Source: an uncultured Anaerolineales bacterium
GTDB lineage: Bacteria > Chloroflexota > Anaerolineae > B4-G1 > DUEL01
Direction: 5' to 3'
NCBI GenBank assembly: GCA_964580565.1
Contig: CAZOLN010000003.1
Span: forward strand, 1-41,499
Length of the DNA stretch: 41,499 bases
A program made the translations under genes and the position numbers. Shown here piece by piece: positions 285 through 31,470 of this stretch (its first letter is position 1; the number at the start of each line of letters is the position of its first letter). The notes below the pieces were generated by a model that searched no databases, had not been told where the DNA came from, and saw nothing but the letters and a program-made list of their open reading frames with translations.

Positions 285-1732
285 CCCCCACTTCCCTGCT
301 TCCTTGCTTCCTCGCTTCCTTGCTTCCCTGCTTCCCCACTCCCCTCTCTCCTACTTCCCTGCTCCCTCAAGAACAACGCCTGGGCCGCCCCCAGCAGCGC
401 CCAGGTATAGACGGCGTAGTCGAACCCGGCGATGGTCTGGGTGTAGACGAAGGGGACGATCCAATCCCCCAGCGCCATCGCCACCAGCGCGCCCACGTAT
501 CCACCGACCGCGGCCAGCCCGAACGCCTCGGCGAAGTCCTGCCGCCCCTTCACCCGCCGGTACAGCCGCCAGAGGACCACGCCCGTCGCCGCCCAGAACC
601 ACAGGAAGAAGAAAAGACCCACCACGCCTGTCTGGGAGAGGACGTCGATGTAGGTGCTGTGGGAGGCCATCGCCTCCAGCGGGAAGTAATTCATGTAGTA
701 GACCGCGTAGCCCGCCGGTCCAACGCCGAAGAGCCAGTGCTCCCCCGTCACCCGCCAGTTGTGAAGCCAGGCGTCGACCCGCGTCACGCCGCTGGCGACC
801 ATCTCCTGCTGCAATTTGGCCTCCACCGCGGGGAGGTTAAAAGCGACGTACAGAGTCACCGCCACGATCAGGAGGATCAGCACCTTGCGCGAGCGCAACA
901 CCCCGATCGCCGCCAGCCCGGCCATCGCCGGCACCCAGGAGGAGAGCCAGCGGAACTGGTGGACGAAGACCTGGTAGAACCACGCCCCGGCCAGGACCAC
1001 CAGCGCCAGGCGGAGCAGCAGGGGCAACCGACGATGGAAGAACCCCAGGGCGAGGGCTAGGCAGATGAACCAGGTCGGGAAGAGCGGCCGCACCTGGAGG
1101 AAGTCCAGGTAGGGCAGGCGCAGGTAGTACCTCAGGATGGCCGCCGTCCCGACGACCAGCAGCAGGCCGACCAGGACACGGACCCACCGGGTATCTTCCT
1201 GCTGGGCCGCCACGAGGAACACCCCCGGCAGCAGGACCATCACGGCCAGCCCACCCAACTGGACGAAGGGCCAGGTGGGCCAGGGCTGCACCAGAACGTC
1301 CCGGAAGGCGATGCTCCAGGGAAGCGAGATGATGGACACCGCGACGAAGCCCAGGAGGGGTACGTTGACCGGCGAGGGCTTGAGCCGGATCTTCCGATCG
1401 GCCAGCCACTGGCTCGCCACCCACCAGGCGACGACGCCCCCCGCCAGGACCAGGCTGATGGGGATGCGGCTTCGGGTGCCGGTGGGAAGCGTGTAGCGGA
1501 TAACGGCGGCGGCAGCGATCACGCCGACGATCCCGTGTTCGATGCGCGCCCGTCCGAGACCCAGCGCCCCTACCAGAGGGAGGAACACGAACGGCAACAG
1601 CAACCAGGGACGGGCCATCCGCACGGCGATCCAGCCTACCGCCACCCCAAACGCCAACACGCCGACGACCATCCCCGCTCGCAACAGCCAGAGCCAGAGG
1701 ACGGGAAAGCGCCGCTCAACTGATGTCAACAT
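281..1732 (-). CDS. Polytopic membrane protein with O-antigen ligase / Wzy_C-type domain (ligase, polymerase or O-oligosaccharyltransferase)
   Basis: Many hydrophobic helices. Signature WLHNWRVTGEHWLFGVGPAGY...ASHSTYIDVLSQTGVVGL. Start trimmed to ATG 1732 (MLTSVERRFPVLWLW), because the longer ORF overlaps the upstream GT gene. The last ~27 codons are encoded by the octamer array. Confidence 0.7.
   Translation of the reverse strand: MLTSVERRFPVLWLWLLRAGMVVGVLAFGVAVGWIAVRMARPWLLLPFVFLPLVGALGLGRARIEHGIVGVIAAAAVIRYTLPTGTRSRIPISLVLAGGVVAWWVASQWLADRKIRLKPSPVNVPLLGFVAVSIISLPWSIAFRDVLVQPWPTWPFVQLGGLAVMVLLPGVFLVAAQQEDTRWVRVLVGLLLVVGTAAILRYYLRLPYLDFLQVRPLFPTWFICLALALGFFHRRLPLLLRLALVVLAGAWFYQVFVHQFRWLSSWVPAMAGLAAIGVLRSRKVLILLIVAVTLYVAFNLPAVEAKLQQEMVASGVTRVDAWLHNWRVTGEHWLFGVGPAGYAVYYMNYFPLEAMASHSTYIDVLSQTGVVGLFFFLWFWAATGVVLWRLYRRVKGRQDFAEAFGLAAVGGYVGALVAMALGDWIVPFVYTQTIAGFDYAVYTWALLGAAQALFLREQGSRREGSGEAGKQGSEEARKQGSGG
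291..368 (-). repeat. Octamer tandem array, CARGGAAG on the gene strand (5 clean plus about 4 degenerate units)
   Basis: Plus strand reads cttccctg cttccttg cttcctcg cttccttg cttccctg cttcccca ctcccctc... The array ends 6 nt before ATG 284. Confidence 0.85.
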
Positions 1733-20176: not shown

Positions 20177-21417
20177 GCAGCCTCTGCTCCCTCGCTCCTT
20201 TGCTCCCTTGCTCCCTGCACCCTCCATCGATGCGGCAGGTACACCAACGCTCCCCCCTGATCGAACCGGGAGCCCACCACGAAGTGGACCGCTCCGTCGA
20301 TCTGGTCATAGGTGAGCGGAGAAAAATGGTCCCGCTTGATGCCGACGTTGACGTTGTACTCCCCGTTGAGGAGGTTCAGGCTCTCGTAGATGACCTCGGC
20401 GACCCCCTCATCCCCCGGCTCGAAGTGGCCGTGGATGTCGAACCGGGCCGTCGTGGTACCGTGGAGGATGCGGTATCCCTGACGGATGCGGGAGTAGAAG
20501 ACGGGGTCGTCCACCGGCGCGTTGGCGCGGAAGTGGATGCGCAGCCTCATCGGCTCCGCCGTCAGGAAGGAGTTGCGCGGCTCCCCCTCCCCGTCGAGCA
20601 GTTCCACCCGCGTGATCTCCATCTCCCGACCGCCCCCTCCTCGCCTATCCACCTCCCGCCGCAGCGCCTCGCCAGCGAAGCCGGTGTGGTAGAGATCCAA
20701 CGCCTCCTGGGTCTCCCCCAGGAACATCACCTTGCCCTTGTAGAGGAACAGGGTCCGATCGCACAACTTCTGGATCATCTCCTTGTTGTGAGAGACCACC
20801 ACCATCGTCTTGCCGGCATCCCGGAACTCCTGGATCCGCCGGACGCACTTATCGCGGAACATGTAATCCCCAACGGCCAGCACCTCGTCGATGAGCAGCA
20901 CGTCCGGATCCACGTGGACCGCCACGGCGAAGCCCAGTCGGACGAACATCCCGGAGGAGTACCGCTTGACCGGCATGTCGATGAACTCCTCCAGTTCGGA
21001 GAAGGCGACGATGCTGTCGAACTTCTCGTCGATCTCCCGCCGCTTCAGCCCCAGGATGGCGCCGTTGAGGTAGATGTTCTCCCGCCCGCTCAGGTCGGGA
21101 TGGAAGCCCGCGCCCAACTCGATGAGGGCGGAGACCCTGCCGCGCACCGTGATCCGCCCGCTGGTGGGGCGGGTGACCCGGGAGAGGAGTTTCAGGACGG
21201 TCGTCTTCCCCGCCCCGTTGGGGCCGATGATGCCCAGCACCTCCCCCTTCTTGACCTCAAAACTCACCCCGTCCAGCGCCCAGAGCAGGTCCCCCCGATC
21301 CTTCCCATCCCGCCCGACCACCTTGCCCAGCAGGTTCGGCAGCGCGTCCCGCAGGCTCCCCCGTCCGAACCGACGGCGGTAGGCCTTTCGCACGTTCTCA
21401 AACTCGATCGCGGCCAT
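20173..21417 (-). CDS. wzt: Polysaccharide-export ABC transporter ATP-binding protein with C-terminal Wzt_C-type carbohydrate-binding domain
   Basis: Walker A GPNGAGKTT, signature YSSGMFVRL, Walker B LLIDEVLAVGD. About 150-aa beta-rich C-terminal domain (ITRVELLDGEGEPRNSF...LNGEYNVNVGI). Start trimmed to ATG 21417 (MAAIEFENV). Confidence 0.9.
   Translation of the reverse strand: MAAIEFENVRKAYRRRFGRGSLRDALPNLLGKVVGRDGKDRGDLLWALDGVSFEVKKGEVLGIIGPNGAGKTTVLKLLSRVTRPTSGRITVRGRVSALIELGAGFHPDLSGRENIYLNGAILGLKRREIDEKFDSIVAFSELEEFIDMPVKRYSSGMFVRLGFAVAVHVDPDVLLIDEVLAVGDYMFRDKCVRRIQEFRDAGKTMVVVSHNKEMIQKLCDRTLFLYKGKVMFLGETQEALDLYHTGFAGEALRREVDRRGGGGREMEITRVELLDGEGEPRNSFLTAEPMRLRIHFRANAPVDDPVFYSRIRQGYRILHGTTTARFDIHGHFEPGDEGVAEVIYESLNLLNGEYNVNVGIKRDHFSPLTYDQIDGAVHFVVGSRFDQGGALVYLPHRWRVQGAREQRSEGAEAA
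20186..20225 (-). repeat. Octamer tandem array x5, RAGGGAGC on the gene strand
   Basis: Plus strand reads gctccctc gctccttt gctccctt gctccctg caccctcc. Lies directly upstream of ATG 20176. Confidence 0.8.
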
Positions 21418-24993: not shown

Positions 24994-25698
24994 CTACAGA
25001 AGATCCTCCGCCTCAAAGAAGTAACCGCTACCGCGGACGGTGCGGATGTAACGAGGCGATTTGGGGTCCGGCTCGATCTTGCGCCGCAGACGATAGATGT
25101 ACTGCTTCACCAGGTCCGGCTCACCGATCCGCTCCGGCCCCCACACCCGGGTCAGGATGGCGTCGGGGCTCAGGACCCGACCGGCGTGCCGGATGAGGAG
25201 ACGGAGGACCTCGAACTCCTTGGGGGTCAGATACACCGTCCGGTTGCCGATGACCAGTTCGTGGCGACCACAATCCAGCATCACCGAAGCGGCCGGGAAC
25301 AGGACCTCCTGCTCCCGGTCCTCCCGCTCGCCGGCCCGGCGCAGGGAGGCGAAGAGACGGCCGATCAACTCCGAACGGTTGAACGGCTTCACAACGTAGT
25401 CGTCCGCCCCGAGGGAGAAACCACGTACCACATCCTCAATGGTTCCACGGGCGGTGACGAAGATGATGGGCACGTCGGTCATCTCCCGCAACCGTCGGCA
25501 GACCTCGAACCCGTCCACCTCCGGCATCACTACGTCGAGGAGGACCACGTCTGGGTGGAGCTGGTAAGCCATCCGCAGGCCAGTCAGTGCATCCTGAGCC
25601 GTGAAGACCTCAAAGCCCTCCGCGCCCAGGATCACCTTGAGCATCTTTAGCACATCGGGTTGGTCATCGATCGCAAGGACGCGGAACCGCCGACGCAT
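24994..25698 (-). CDS. OmpR/PhoB-family response regulator (monocistronic)
   Basis: VLAIDDQ...VVLLDVVMPEVDG...VVKP. LTPKEFEVLRLL...YIYRLRRKIE...YIRTVRGSGYFF. Start trimmed to ATG 25698 because the track start (TTG 25731) lies at the predicted transcription start. Confidence 0.92.
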   Translation of the reverse strand: MRRRFRVLAIDDQPDVLKMLKVILGAEGFEVFTAQDALTGLRMAYQLHPDVVLLDVVMPEVDGFEVCRRLREMTDVPIIFVTARGTIEDVVRGFSLGADDYVVKPFNRSELIGRLFASLRRAGEREDREQEVLFPAASVMLDCGRHELVIGNRTVYLTPKEFEVLRLLIRHAGRVLSPDAILTRVWGPERIGEPDLVKQYIYRLRRKIEPDPKSPRYIRTVRGSGYFFEAEDLL

Positions 25699-25735
25699 TT
25701 CCTCTCCCTCCTCCCCCTCATCGGGCCCCAATCAA

Positions 25736-25764
25736 ATACTACCACAGCAGAGGTTTTGTGTCAA
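25736..25764 (-). promoter_or_regulatory. Sigma70-type promoter for the monocistronic response regulator
   Basis: Minus strand reads TTGACA, 17 nt, TAGTAT. This lies about 35 nt upstream of ATG 25698. Confidence 0.55.
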
Positions 25765-25871
25765 TCTTTTGAGAGACCTGTCCGCCGCGCCCGTCCCCCT
25801 CTTGCAGGTTACAGACATCCCAGCGGATACCGTCACGGGCCCGGCCGCCAGGCCCCATCCGCCACGCAACG

Positions 25872-27947: not shown

Positions 27948-29036
27948 AGCGAGGCGGGTGACGAGCGGCAGGTACAGCGCAGCACCCCCGGCGAGGGGGA
28001 TCCGCTCCACAAGGGTGTACGGTCCGCCCGCCCCGTCGTCCCGATAGGTCTCCAGCACAACGAAGTCGTCCTCAACCCGGATAACGAGAAAGGTGCTGGG
28101 GGCTCCTCGATCCCCCTTTCCACGGGCGTGCCCGGCGTCCAGTTGCCAGACCCCGTCGATGCGCACCGCGCTGTAGTTGTGCGTGTGCCCGCAGATGTAG
28201 GCCACCACGCCGTGGGCCGCCAGGAGGTCCCAAAACCGATCTCGGTTCGCCGGATGAGCGTCGAGGCTGTCGCCGACGTGTCGCTCCCGCCCCGTCTCCG
28301 CGTCCGGCTGCGGGAAGGCCGGCTCGTGGCCGAAGACGAAGATGTAGGGCCGGTCGGTCGCCTGCAGGTCCGCCGCCAACCACTCGTAGAGGTGGTCGGG
28401 AAGGTCCCCATCGGTCGCCATCGGCCCGCCGACGTCGCAGTAGACGTTGAGCATCACCAGGTGGGCAGCGCCGTAGTCGAACGAGTAGGTCGTCGTCGGG
28501 CAGCCGGAGGGGCCGGGGTTCACCGGGCCGTAGTCGTACGCCTGGAGCCAGGCCACGTCGTCGGGGGTCTCCACCTCGTGGTTGCCGACGCCGGGATACC
28601 ACGGGAAGTCGGCCCCAAGGGTCTGGGAGAGGGTCCACTGCACCCCCAGCGGCGGATCGACGTCGCCGGGGCTGACCATGAAGGCCACGTCGCCCAGGGC
28701 GGCGATGGCCTCGCACGCCCCGCGGAAGTAGTGGACGGAGTCGTAGAGGCCCGGCCCTGCGTACTGCCGCATATCGGCAGCGACGGCGAAGGCGAAGGAG
28801 GAAGAGGGGGAGAGAGGGGAGAGAGGAGACAAGGGGACAGGGGGAGAAGGAGGAACCGTGGGAGAGGATACGGCAGGAGGACGAGCTGTAGGGGCGAGGG
28901 TGGGAGAGGCGGTGGGAGAGGTGATAGGGGGAGCAGCAGGAACGGCAGCGCAGGCAACCCCGAGCAAGAGGAGCGACAGCAAGATCGACGACGGGGTCAG
29001 GCCGAGCACCCTCCCCAACCGGTGGAGTCCCTTCAC
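27930..29036 (-). CDS. Secreted or anchored calcineurin-like metallophosphoesterase
   Basis: Signal/anchor ILLSLLLLGVACAAV and a Pro/Ser-rich linker, then SPGDVD, GVGNHE, VFGHEP, ICGHTHN motifs. GTG 29036 follows GGAGGAGG. The stop lies inside the heptamer array. Confidence 0.8.
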   Translation of the reverse strand: MKGLHRLGRVLGLTPSSILLSLLLLGVACAAVPAAPPITSPTASPTLAPTARPPAVSSPTVPPSPPVPLSPLSPLSPSSSFAFAVAADMRQYAGPGLYDSVHYFRGACEAIAALGDVAFMVSPGDVDPPLGVQWTLSQTLGADFPWYPGVGNHEVETPDDVAWLQAYDYGPVNPGPSGCPTTTYSFDYGAAHLVMLNVYCDVGGPMATDGDLPDHLYEWLAADLQATDRPYIFVFGHEPAFPQPDAETGRERHVGDSLDAHPANRDRFWDLLAAHGVVAYICGHTHNYSAVRIDGVWQLDAGHARGKGDRGAPSTFLVIRVEDDFVVLETYRDDGAGGPYTLVERIPLAGGAALYLPLVTRLALTPDA

Positions 29037-29049
29037 CGCCTCCTCCGGA

Positions 29050-29727
29050 CTACTCGCTTTTCTGAGGCAGGTGGGGCAACAGCCAGGCCAGGAATGCATC
29101 GGTGGAGCGGGTCTGGAGCAGGACGCGCCCCGGCCCGGTGAGGTCCACCACCAGCCCTTCCCCGCTGAAGAAGGTGGACTTCAGGCCGCCGATGCGGCGC
29201 ACCTTGAAGCCGATCCCCTCGGTGAAGGCGACCAGGTGGCCCGTGTCCACCGTGTAGGTCTCCCCCGCTTCCAGATCCACCGGGTGGATAGCGCCGAAGG
29301 ACGAGAGGAGCAACTTCCCCGTGCCGGAGGCGCGCAGCATGATCAGCCCCTCGGAGGCAAAAAAGGTCTTCGCACCGCCCCACTTGGTATCCAGCGTAAC
29401 CCCCATCTCAGAGGCGACGTAGGAGCCGGACTGCACCAGAAGGGTCTCGTCCTTGAGATCCACCACGAAGAGGTCGCCAGGAAGAGCGGGGGCAACGGTC
29501 AGTTCTCCTCCGGTGGACGGGGCGCGGTAGGTGTTCTGGAAGAAGCTCTCCCCCGCCAGGAGGGAACGGGCCAGGGACTTCAGGATGCCGCCCGCCGCCT
29601 TGGTCTGCACGGCGATCCCTTTGGACATGCTGACCATCGCGCCGCCTTCCACCCGCACTTCCTCGTTGGGGCCCAGGCGGAGGACCCCAAGGGAGTAGGA
29701 TGGGCGATACAAGATTTCTACCTCCAT
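29050..29727 (-). CDS. AIM24 / TIGR00266 (DUF124) family protein
   Basis: Full-length family-like sequence ...GGAMVSMSKGIAVQTK...GESFFQNTY...VDTGHLVAFTEGIGFKV...SGEGLVVDLTGPGRVLLQTR. Confidence 0.8.
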   Translation of the reverse strand: MEVEILYRPSYSLGVLRLGPNEEVRVEGGAMVSMSKGIAVQTKAAGGILKSLARSLLAGESFFQNTYRAPSTGGELTVAPALPGDLFVVDLKDETLLVQSGSYVASEMGVTLDTKWGGAKTFFASEGLIMLRASGTGKLLLSSFGAIHPVDLEAGETYTVDTGHLVAFTEGIGFKVRRIGGLKSTFFSGEGLVVDLTGPGRVLLQTRSTDAFLAWLLPHLPQKSE

Positions 29728-29763
29728 CGCGTTTCTCCTTTCCTTGTTTGGTTTGTTTACTTC

Positions 29764-30363
29764 TTACCCCTGCCCTCTAACCACGTAAATCCCCGGCAGG
29801 CTCGCCAGGGTGACCGCCCCCTTCAGCAGGACGTTGGCCCAGAAGATGGACCACACGGTAGCGGCGGGGAGGACGCCCCCAAACGCCCCCCAGCAAAAGA
29901 TGAGGCTGTCCAGCGGGACGCTGACCGCGTTGCTGGTGAGGACCCGCATCCACTGGTAGCGGCGGGTGATGCGGGTGACCCAGAGGTGGTAGATCTCGGT
30001 GTCGATGAACTCGGCGACCACCTCGGCGACGATGGAGGCGATAACGATCCGCCAAACCGGGGTGAGGACGGCGGCGAACTCCCGCTGGAGCGACCAGGTG
30101 GGGTCCGGCGGGAGCCAGGCGGCGAAGGCGAAAAGACCCGCCATCACCAGGTTGATGACCCCCGCTGCGACGATCACCGTCCGTGCCGCCGATCGCCCTA
30201 GCGACTTGTGCACCAGGTCCCGCAGGGTGAAGGTGAACGGGTAGATGAACGTGCCCGCGTCGATGCTGAAGCCCGCCACCCAGGCGATCTTCAGGCTCAA
30301 GATGTCGGAGAGCATCTGGGCAGCGATGTAGGCAGAGATGACCAGGACGCCAACGGTGCTCAC
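29764..30363 (-). CDS. yhhQ: Queuosine-precursor transporter (YhhQ/DUF165 family)
   Basis: AQMLSDILSLKI...GTFIYPFTFTLRDLVHK...DTEIYHLW...SNAVSVPLDSLIF. GTG start at 30363 follows GGGGAG. Confidence 0.85.
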   Translation of the reverse strand: MSTVGVLVISAYIAAQMLSDILSLKIAWVAGFSIDAGTFIYPFTFTLRDLVHKSLGRSAARTVIVAAGVINLVMAGLFAFAAWLPPDPTWSLQREFAAVLTPVWRIVIASIVAEVVAEFIDTEIYHLWVTRITRRYQWMRVLTSNAVSVPLDSLIFCWGAFGGVLPAATVWSIFWANVLLKGAVTLASLPGIYVVRGQG

Positions 30364-30407
30364 TTTGTCTCCCCTGTTTTTAAGTTACAGGACTTACGCA
30401 GCCTCAT

Positions 30408-30478
30408 CACAGAAGCACGGAGGCCACAGAGTTCTACCGGGTTTTCCAGGTTTTCTCTGCGTCCTCCGTGCCCCTGTG
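30408..30478. repeat. Intergenic palindromic element (REP/MITE-like), full copy
   Basis: GCACGGAGGCCACAGAG (30415-30431) pairs with CTCTGCGTCCTCCGTGC (30455-30471) at 15 of 17 positions. An outer CACAG/CTGTG extension adds to the stem. The loop is 23 nt. Confidence 0.75.
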
Positions 30479-30507
30479 GTTTCGTCCAATACAAGTGTGT
30501 AACTCCT

Positions 30508-30549
30508 GGCAGGTTACAGGTTACAGGCTACAAGTTACAGGTCTCAGGT
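30508..30549 (-). repeat. Heptamer tandem array x5-6, CCTGTAA family on the gene strand
   Basis: Minus strand reads ACCTGAG ACCTGTA ACTTGTA GCCTGTA ACCTGTA ACCTGCC. Confidence 0.85.
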
Positions 30550-31470
30550 CGCGGGTTGGTGGTTCCACAAGCGGCAGAAAGCGCAAGGGCCGGGGACACT
30601 GGTGGGCTGGCCGCAGACGGGGCATGGATGGAGTTCAACCTGCTCCGATTGCTCCTTGAACAGCCCGTCCTTCCGGGCACGGAGGAAACTGAGGTAGAAC
30701 TGCAACTTGCTGCCCGGCGACTGGACCTCCAACCGACTGAGCAGGTCTTTATAGAAGATCGTGGTGCTTCCCTCCGCGTAGGGGCATTCCTCGTAGATGT
30801 AGTCGATCCCCCGGAGGAGGGCGTAGGCGGCCACCTCCCGCTCGTAGAAGCGGCAGAAGGGCTTGACCTTGCGGGCCAGCCCTTCCCGCTCCTCCAGCAC
30901 GGGGGCCTGCCGGGCCAGGTAGCCCACCTGCCAGTGGAGGACGTTGCTCAGAAGGACAGCGACCTCATCGTCCAGGTTATGGCCGGTGGCCAGCACGCCA
31001 TATCCGTGCTCCCAGGCGATGCGGTTCATCTCGTGTCGCTTGATGAGCCCACAGACGGAGCAGGGCTTGCCCCGCCCCCGCAGTTTTCGGCGCGCCACCT
31101 GGGGGATCGTCTCCCCGTACAGGGCGGGGACATCGACCACGTGCAACTGGGCCTCGGGGTGCTGCGCTACAAAGGCTTCAACCTTCTGGAAGGAGAGCCG
31201 GGAATAGCCAAACCCGCCGTCGATCCCCAGGTCGATGTACAGCCCGTCGGCTTGGTAGCCCAGGCGAAGGAGCACGTCCCAGAGGCTGAGGCTGTCCTTC
31301 CCTCCGGAGACGGCGACCAGCACCCGGTCTTCGCGGCGAAACATTCGGTACTTCCGGATCGCCCGCTCCGTCTGCGCGACGAACCACTCCAGGTAATGCT
31401 CCTCGCAGAGCGCCAGTTTGTGATGCCGCATGTTGAACGCGGCCCGCTTCCCGCACTTTCGACAGCGCAC
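30544..31470 (-). CDS. ttuA: TtuA/Ncs6-family tRNA 2-thiolation PP-loop ATPase
   Basis: N-terminal zinc finger CRKC..CEEH, PP-loop VAVSGGKDS, CSVCG and C-terminal CPVCG..CAFC clusters. The specific tRNA target is inferred from the family only. Confidence 0.8.
   Translation of the reverse strand: MRCRKCGKRAAFNMRHHKLALCEEHYLEWFVAQTERAIRKYRMFRREDRVLVAVSGGKDSLSLWDVLLRLGYQADGLYIDLGIDGGFGYSRLSFQKVEAFVAQHPEAQLHVVDVPALYGETIPQVARRKLRGRGKPCSVCGLIKRHEMNRIAWEHGYGVLATGHNLDDEVAVLLSNVLHWQVGYLARQAPVLEEREGLARKVKPFCRFYEREVAAYALLRGIDYIYEECPYAEGSTTIFYKDLLSRLEVQSPGSKLQFYLSFLRARKDGLFKEQSEQVELHPCPVCGQPTSVPGPCAFCRLWNHQPAT

Follow-up and report, generated by a model that had tools for sequence, protein, structure and literature searches.

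Behind a TtuA-like gene of an uncultured Anaerolineales bacterium lies a run of heptanucleotides that places a stop codon in every reading frame before the next gene begins, and the question raised by this locus is whether that stop content has been selected or accompanies a tandem repeat of another origin. The window, namely the whole 41,499-nt stretch of DNA that was analysed, is contig C3 of the host genome (G000), a 2.74-Mb Thermoflexales MAG of 66% GC in which a self-trained codon model called 2307 genes with 90% of the sequence coding. The era gene close to the junction has its relatives in Thermoflexales MAGs (Chloroflexota, Anaerolineae).

Reading of both strands confirmed the heptamer run letter for letter as the preliminary description had given it, the minus strand from 30549 to 30508 being ACCTGAG ACCTGTA ACTTGTA GCCTGTA ACCTGTA ACCTGCC. 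When the units are counted in phase from the conserved Trp codon of ttuA (Table 1), units 1 and 2 are degenerate and coding, and units 1-3 together encode the tail NHQPAT of TtuA and end it with the TGA at 30546..30544, meaning that the last six ttuA codons plus the stop fall within the array. The untranslated units 4-8 contribute TAA, TAG, TAA and TAA. The stops sit at offsets 3 (TGA), 12 (TAA), 19 (TAG), 26 (TAA) and 33 (TAA), in frames 0, 0, 1, 2 and 0, thereby closing three of three frames on the sense strand as had been claimed; the claimed regular spacing of 7 nt holds for the later intervals, whereas the first is 9 nt. Composed of head-to-tail short units and longer than chance allows, the array qualifies as a heptanucleotide repeat, called by TRF at 30510-30542 with period 7, 4.7 copies and a score of 52. 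It ends 146 nt from the start of yhhQ in a ttuA-yhhQ spacer of 180 nt.

Two solitary copies of the unit, both noticed earlier, were found again in the window: the terminal 11-mer CTGTAACCTGC, for which shuffles predict 0 copies and which is one of three intergenic copies genome-wide, and the CCTGTAAC copy ahead of the yhhQ Shine-Dalgarno sequence. The spacer harbouring the former also contains a near-consensus sigma-70-type promoter (TTGACA, 17 nt, TAGTAT) at 25740-25768 (-), which precedes an OmpR-type response-regulator gene at 24994-25731 (-).

Table 1. Coordinates of the features at the ttuA-yhhQ junction, its orthologous versions, and related loci elsewhere (window positions unless a contig is named)
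Feature	Position	Strand	Basis or remark
Heptamer array, 8 in-phase units	30509..30564	(-)	sequence, TRF, parse from conserved Trp codon against orthologues G001, G008 and G005
TtuA-like 2-thiouridine synthetase gene, 308 aa	30544..31470	(-)	ORF; Pfam TtuA_LIM_N 3e-8, PP-loop 6.6e-7; orthologues in 22 related genomes
yhhQ/Vut_1, queuosine-precursor transporter family	29764..30363	(-)	Pfam Vut_1, 4.9e-37; GTG start
yhhQ Shine-Dalgarno GGGGAG	30369-30374		sequence
Solitary 1.5-unit copy CTGTAACCTGC	25804..25814	(-)	promoter-bearing spacer upstream of response-regulator gene
Solitary CCTGTAAC copy	30384..30391	(-)	9 nt upstream of yhhQ Shine-Dalgarno
Short inverted unit TGTAAC-CTGCCAGGA-GTTACA	30498..30518	(-)	distal array end; in MFE structure
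REP-like palindromic element, ~78 nt, arms CCACAGGGGCACGGAGGACGCAGAG / CTCTGTGGCCTCCGTGCTTCTGTG	30404..30482	(-)	between array and yhhQ
G000 units after Trp codon: AACCACC AACCCGC GACCTGA GACCTGT AACTTGT AGCCTGT AACCTGT AACCTGC	30564..30509	(-)	third-unit TGA ends ttuA
G008 units after Trp codon: AATCAGC AACCAGC AACCAGC AACCAGT AACCAGT AACCAGC ACA-ATG			AACCAGT units create TAA
G005 units after Trp codon: GACCAGC AACCCGC AACCAGC x3 ACC-ATGA			stop-free, translated as ..QQPATSNQQPAP
G001 (same genus) after Trp codon: decayed remnant			20-nt spacer to yhhQ
Array plus inverted complement, G000	C15:25827-25911, C88:6687-6795, C167:1010-1091, C168:1761-1870
Array plus inverted complement, G000	C31:14817-14912, C126:6775-6841, C1:14238-14308
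Clustered heptamer families, G232:C1	1784146-1784933, 978341-979043, 542613-542886, 607828-608039

The run behind ttuA is one of many. In total, 124 period-7 arrays were counted in G000 versus 4 in the locally shuffled genome (1-5 over the shuffles); 121 merged arrays were classified, and a stricter threshold retained 68 arrays of period 7 versus 3-11 at periods 3-6 and 9-13. Most of the merged arrays (98/121) are intergenic, and 87 of 93 spacer arrays occupy same-strand spacers, with 3 convergent and 3 divergent, the same-strand/convergent/divergent expectation being 64/10/18 by spacer length (p=2e-6) and 71/10/12 by spacer number (p=4e-4). Within these spacers the arrays hug the upstream stop at a median of 6 nt, 58 of 87 lying within 12 nt, and they stand off from the next start by a median of 26 nt; 60 arrays are nearer to the stop versus 26 nearer to the next start (p=3e-4). 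Stop-free arrays at gene ends are read through as C-terminal tails, and six arrays of G000 lie within 31 nt of a gene 3' end. Period-8 arrays are over-represented too (72 versus 5 in the shuffled genome), exemplified by CTTCCCTG and TGCTCCCT at window positions 291-367 and 20181-20224, which bear the same CCTG core; the one at 291-367 has ~10 copies in G000 and ~5 in G001.

A degenerate core unites these arrays. An in-phase TG with the consensus C-Y-T-G-M-N-N is shared by 113 of the 121, a figure inflated by the procedure, as strand and phase were chosen among 14 options to maximise in-phase TG and a random heptamer contains TG or CA in ~56% of cases by a rough estimate. T reaches 98% and G 95%; at positions 1 and 5, which lie outside that selection, C accounts for 73% and A or C for 91%, respectively. 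The dominant units are TTTGACG, CTTGACG, CCTGCAT, CCTGCTT and CCTGCGA, and CCTGTAA accounts for 4 of 580 units, one or two substitutions away from CCTGCAT and CCTGTAT. What had been taken for a second family converging on the same architecture is accordingly a rare variant of one superfamily.

This superfamily extends well beyond the host genome. Of 251 Anaerolineae genomes, 88 contain the pattern (CYTGNNN)5, with varied NNN and up to 414 hits, the reversed pattern being near zero in most genomes and high in a few array-rich ones, e.g. G048. Within a single family the counts range from 1 to 98 hits. CCTGTAA itself recurs in a genome of another family (G208), and the TGACGNN sub-family is limited to three genera. 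Loss of mismatch repair fails to explain the array blooms, because MutL (TIGR00585) scored above the cut-off in 245 of the 251 genomes, array-rich ones included. A search of one literature library found no report of heptamer repeats in Anaerolineae.

The history of the ttuA array was read from the relatives carrying ttuA, the DNA being parsed in phase from the same Trp codon. As judged by this alignment of codons and units, the array is orthologous to the (AACCAGC)n arrays at the same junction in two sister genera, represented by G008 and G005. More distant genera end ttuA with CRLW[G/R/E] and the stop, with no array there. Since the array is present in G000, G008 and G005 and in none of the distant genera, it is older than these three genera. 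It reaches the yhhQ start codon in both G008 and G005, suggesting that it originally took up everything between the Trp codon and the start of yhhQ, with an ancestral unit that was probably stop-free in every frame. In G005 the array lacks a stop in any frame and the terminating TGA overlaps the yhhQ ATG. In G008 only two units, both carrying the C-to-T variant, contain TAA, and two frames are closed. The G000 unit differs from AACCAGT of G008 by one A-to-T change. The all-frame stop property is therefore not conserved among the orthologous arrays, being lacking in G005, partial in G008 and lost with the decay in G001.

Turnover of the units themselves is equally apparent, with AACCAGC in G005 and G008, AACCTGT in G000 and decay in G001. 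Sibling arrays in the window, compared between G000 and G001, kept their positions but differ in copy number (~10 versus 5 and 11 versus 7) and in their variable positions, and core positions decay in the G001 copies as well. Fixed position combined with changed copy number and drifted variable positions is the signature that slippage together with point mutation is expected to leave. When contigs of metagenomes and genomes were scanned with degenerate patterns for other junction alleles, only the G001 type was returned, and the contig of HyVt-544 begins inside yhhQ. Repeats of other lengths occupy the 3' end of ttuA in other genera, an 8-mer CTTGCCCA / CTTGCAGA array in G004 (L071) and a ~10-nt GAACGCAGAT-like repeat in G015 (L076), both translated as long TtuA tails.

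An independent view was provided by G232, a rebuilt complete Anaerolineae genome from another family (2.57 Mb, 49% GC) that was passed through the same pipeline. Period 7 stands out here too (61 arrays versus 0-6), and 54 of 56 arrays are intergenic. Stop hugging was not found in this genome (median 169 nt), nor was an operon preference (35/12/7 same-strand/convergent/divergent observed versus 33/7/14 expected) or a bias of closure towards the sense strand (7 versus 9). Several of its array families, such as TTAGAGC and GACGGAG, lack the CYTG core. Its long intergenic regions contain different heptamer families side by side, like cyanobacterial STRR clusters, and one of the units, TAGCTGA, departs from the Beggiatoaceae repeat TAACTGA at a single position.

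The remainder of the ttuA-yhhQ spacer is dominated by another kind of element. A 206-nt stretch folds at -74.2 kcal/mol (z -3.9), its long central hairpin corresponding to a REP-like palindrome that lies 30 nt downstream of the array. This element is dispersed over 113 genome loci with a median length of 74 nt, strongly enriched in convergent spacers (29 loci) and found at 60 loci in same-strand spacers; it was not found at the ttuA-yhhQ junction of G001, G005 or G008. Only 1 of 121 heptamer arrays has a copy within 150 nt, on which ground a functional link between the two was rejected, and the palindrome is an unrelated insertion separate from the heptamer family. The solitary CCTGTAAC probably represents what was once the far end of the array, severed by an insertion of ~120 nt bearing the REP-like element. 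No terminator-like site or promoter was predicted in the spacer, and the Rfam search of it gave no match at gathering score, spurious miRNA-hairpin matches on the palindrome appearing at E<=1. A preQ1 or other riboswitch ahead of yhhQ was likewise rejected in view of the lacking Rfam match and a junction of 0-20 nt in the relatives. Further along the window, positions 28804-29780, including an ORF at 29050-29727 (-), gave no BLAST alignment to the syntenic contig of G001, the flanks being 87-88% identical, and an indel that separates two species of the same genus is the probable reason.

Folding was also compared across the arrays, which reach -0.166 kcal/mol per nt versus -0.142 in their own shuffles and -0.29 in other spacers. 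The arrays are less structured than other spacers solely because they are less GC-rich, and the idea of a structure-free linker was rejected on the comparison with their own shuffles. Seven loci in G000 consist of an array directly followed by the inverted complement of its own unit family, which would give long imperfect hairpins, the pair at C1:14238-14308 being AACCTGT/CAGGTTT. The same arrangement was seen twice in G001 (L218, L234). Where such pairs belong to the TGACG family, the arm with TGA adjoins the upstream stop, as judged by manual reading.

Whether the stops are selected was assessed on the 87 arrays in same-strand spacers, under the proposal that arrays behind genes serve as a barrier against ribosomes that read through a stop or slip out of frame, keeping them from reaching the next cistron. 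All-frame closure occurs on the sense strand in 28 and on the antisense strand in 13, exclusive closure being 25 versus 10 (binomial p=0.017); among stop-proximal arrays the counts are 19 versus 4 (p=0.003), and a column-permutation null yields 18.2+-3.4 sense closures against the 28 observed (p=0.002). The ttuA array itself closes all frames, and the TGACGNN arrays carry their TGA mostly on the sense strand, often as the very stop of the upstream gene; in the inverted pairs the TGA-bearing arm is the stop-side one. The enrichment is carried by this one family, however, and its bias could equally reflect strand compositional skew, TTTGACG being G+T-rich. As many as 49 of the 87 arrays close neither strand, and the 36 CYTGCNN arrays are stop-free on both, with orientations of ~20 versus 16 by hand tally and no bias. 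Moreover, stop-free arrays are translated as tails, the orthologous array of G005 is both stop-free and translated, and that of G001 has been left to decay. The TGACG arrays of close relatives (8 sense versus 5 antisense) show no significant bias, and G232 shows no sense bias at all. As gcd(7,3)=1, a stop triplet anywhere in a heptamer shuts every frame after at most three copies, rendering closure automatic for every stop-bearing unit. The outcome named beforehand as refuting the earlier suggestion, a complete lack of sense-strand stop enrichment, was not what G000 showed. All-frame closure is mostly an arithmetic by-product and not a designed feature, the selection reading is weakly supported, and a stop barrier is improbable.

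A different functional proposal regards the C-Y-T-G-M core, repeated every 7 and sometimes 8 nt, as a recognition array bound by a DNA or RNA factor at operon-internal junctions, e.g. a regulator of translational coupling or mRNA processing. It would account for a conserved core with free flanking positions that recurs class-wide with varied NNN, for the enrichment in same-strand spacers with depletion in divergent and convergent ones, and for positions conserved between species; the CTG core common to TAACTGA (rotated ACTGATA) and the STRR1/STRR3 units is a lead and not a test. Such recognition is nevertheless unlikely, as the presence of CYTGCNN in both orientations argues against a strand-specific RNA motif, G232 has core-less families whose placement is not operon-specific, core positions have decayed in the G001 copies, related genomes differ 100-fold in how many arrays they have, and the TG match owes part of its height to the 14 strand-and-phase options. 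Less credible still is an RNA hairpin, terminator or mRNA-stabilising element that protects or ends the ttuA transcript. The array does end in a short inverted unit, the seven array-plus-complement loci would form long hairpins, and a strong hairpin follows 30 nt downstream, but the small hairpin is weak and largely missing from the centroid fold, neither a T-run nor a terminator-like site accompanies it, arrays are depleted in convergent spacers (3 versus ~10 expected) and fold not meaningfully better or worse than shuffles, and the strong hairpin belongs to the unrelated REP-like element, which is near 1 of 121 arrays and missing from the orthologous junctions. Phase variation, in which slippage would toggle TtuA length or yhhQ expression, can be considered extremely improbable: a unit length that is not a multiple of 3, copy numbers of sibling arrays that differ between species, and TtuA tails that differ between genera because of the array all speak for it, yet with the TGA in the third unit and all frames closed downstream, copy changes in units 4-8 cannot alter TtuA, yhhQ has its own Shine-Dalgarno sequence 130 nt away and no promoter was found in the spacer, and the genes serve housekeeping tRNA modification and transport and are not contingency loci. 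In its widest form the functional proposal would make the (C-Y-T-G-M-N-N)n arrays heptad-periodic elements at operon-internal junctions, read by a putative factor or organising translation termination and re-initiation, with the TGA/TAA variants as fail-safe all-frame terminators and the CTG core shared with TAACTGA and STRR pointing to a common mechanism across several phyla, a view that we regard as improbable.

The best explanation, to which we assign a probability of roughly 72%, is that the CCTGTAA run is a heptanucleotide satellite comparable to LSSR and STRR repeats, maintained by slippage and tolerated where it adjoins stop codons. The anatomy of the array, its genome- and class-wide family, its orthology and its unit turnover are direct observations, and we infer slippage as the generating mechanism together with the absence of a selected function. 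The ancestor shared by three Thermoflexales genera would have acquired an (AACCAGC)n array at the ttuA 3' end; this array would have filled the short ttuA-yhhQ junction and been partly translated as a low-complexity TtuA tail, and it may have persisted via replication slippage and unit-to-unit homogenisation. Along the branch to G000, substitutions (A to T within the core, C to T at the last position) presumably spread through the units and gave TGA, TAA and TAG. As 7 is coprime to 3, a stop triplet recurs in all frames, so ttuA ends in the third unit and the rest is untranslated. Later, a REP-like hairpin element would have inserted in or beside the array, widening the spacer to 180 nt. The array adjoins the stop codon because such repeats are tolerated there in a 90%-coding genome; at a gene end it would interfere neither with the protein encoded upstream nor with the ribosome-binding site of the following gene. 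The all-frame stops are a recent and local by-product of unit drift.

Several observations stand against the satellite reading. The 87 of 93 spacer arrays in same-strand spacers, with 64-71 expected, are unlike neutral placement, and the hugging of stops (median 6 nt; 60 versus 26) and the enrichment of sense closure point the same way. A class-wide core of 4-5 nt with 2-3 free positions is closer to what a recognition motif would show than to the outcome of slippage alone, and the array has been kept at the ttuA-yhhQ junction across three genera. The conserved CYTG core and the same-strand-junction placement are not fully explained by neutrality, which keeps a functional reading alive with a small share of the probability.

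For the ttuA-yhhQ locus itself little is at stake, although the array explains the differing low-complexity C-terminal tails of TtuA orthologues and the junction differences between close relatives. The wider meaning is that many Anaerolineae bear tens to hundreds of heptamer arrays on one degenerate core, and that in the compact genome of a thermophile such arrays accumulate beside stop codons within operons. This lineage would be well suited to studies of why bacterial tandem repeats favour a length of 7 nt. The appearance of a stop in every frame should not be taken as design without a strand-aware, multi-genome test.

Comparison with known systems places these arrays among the long simple sequence repeats of prokaryotes. 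Heptanucleotide units are the most abundant LSSR class in most of the SSR-rich prokaryotic genomes examined, and polymerase slippage was proposed as the origin of LSSRs, according to the summary of Mrazek 2007 given in MacGregor 2015 (PMC4679880). As far as that summary goes, the likeness lies in head-to-tail 7-nt units above chance, an overwhelmingly intergenic location, copy numbers shifting between relatives and a sporadic phylogeny; the differences are that most arrays here share a degenerate CYTGM core instead of arbitrary units and that they prefer same-strand junctions, against the stop codon, in a compact genome.

The TAACTGA direct repeats of Beggiatoaceae, Cyanobacteria and Bacteroidetes (MacGregor 2015, PMC4679880) are similar in being intergenic heptamer direct repeats of 2-6 or more copies in ~100-170 sets per genome, in closing all frames in one orientation by the stops of the unit, and in lacking predicted RNA structure. 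Their embedded stops limit where the arrays can lie or overlap with coding sequence, and something similar to a factor-binding role was proposed for them (MacGregor 2015, PMC4679880). The BOGUAY arrays, however, lie a few nt upstream of start codons (PMC4679880), whereas the median array of G000 is 6 nt from a stop and 26 nt from the next start. The unit sequence also differs and is far more variable here (CCTGTAA / AACCTGT; consensus CYTGMNN), although TAACTGA, when rotated to ACTGATA, has the CTG(A) core in common with it.

The two families meet the cyanobacterial heptamers at the same trinucleotide. STRR1 and STRR3 units read ACTGGGG and ACTGTTG on the complementary strand. The STRR (short tandemly repeated repetitive) heptamers, which were reportedly described by Mazel et al. 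in 1990, resemble the present arrays in comprising several families per genome, in forming tandem intergenic arrays, and in clustering in long spacers as in G232. They come from another phylum with other units (CCCCAGT, TTGGTCA, CAACAGT), and the likeness is one of unit description in which only the CTG core is shared. Closer in taxonomy are the (GATAGRA)n satellites of Chloroflexus aurantiacus, which have a heptamer unit scattered over the genome in ~22 arrays (Subirana & Messeguer 2019, PMC6749651) and belong to the same phylum, but to the class Chloroflexia and not Anaerolineae, and whose unit lacks the CYTG core. Set beside these systems, the CCTGTAA array behind ttuA is nothing out of the ordinary, being one of the many 7-base tandem repeats that make up a large family within this lineage of Chloroflexota.
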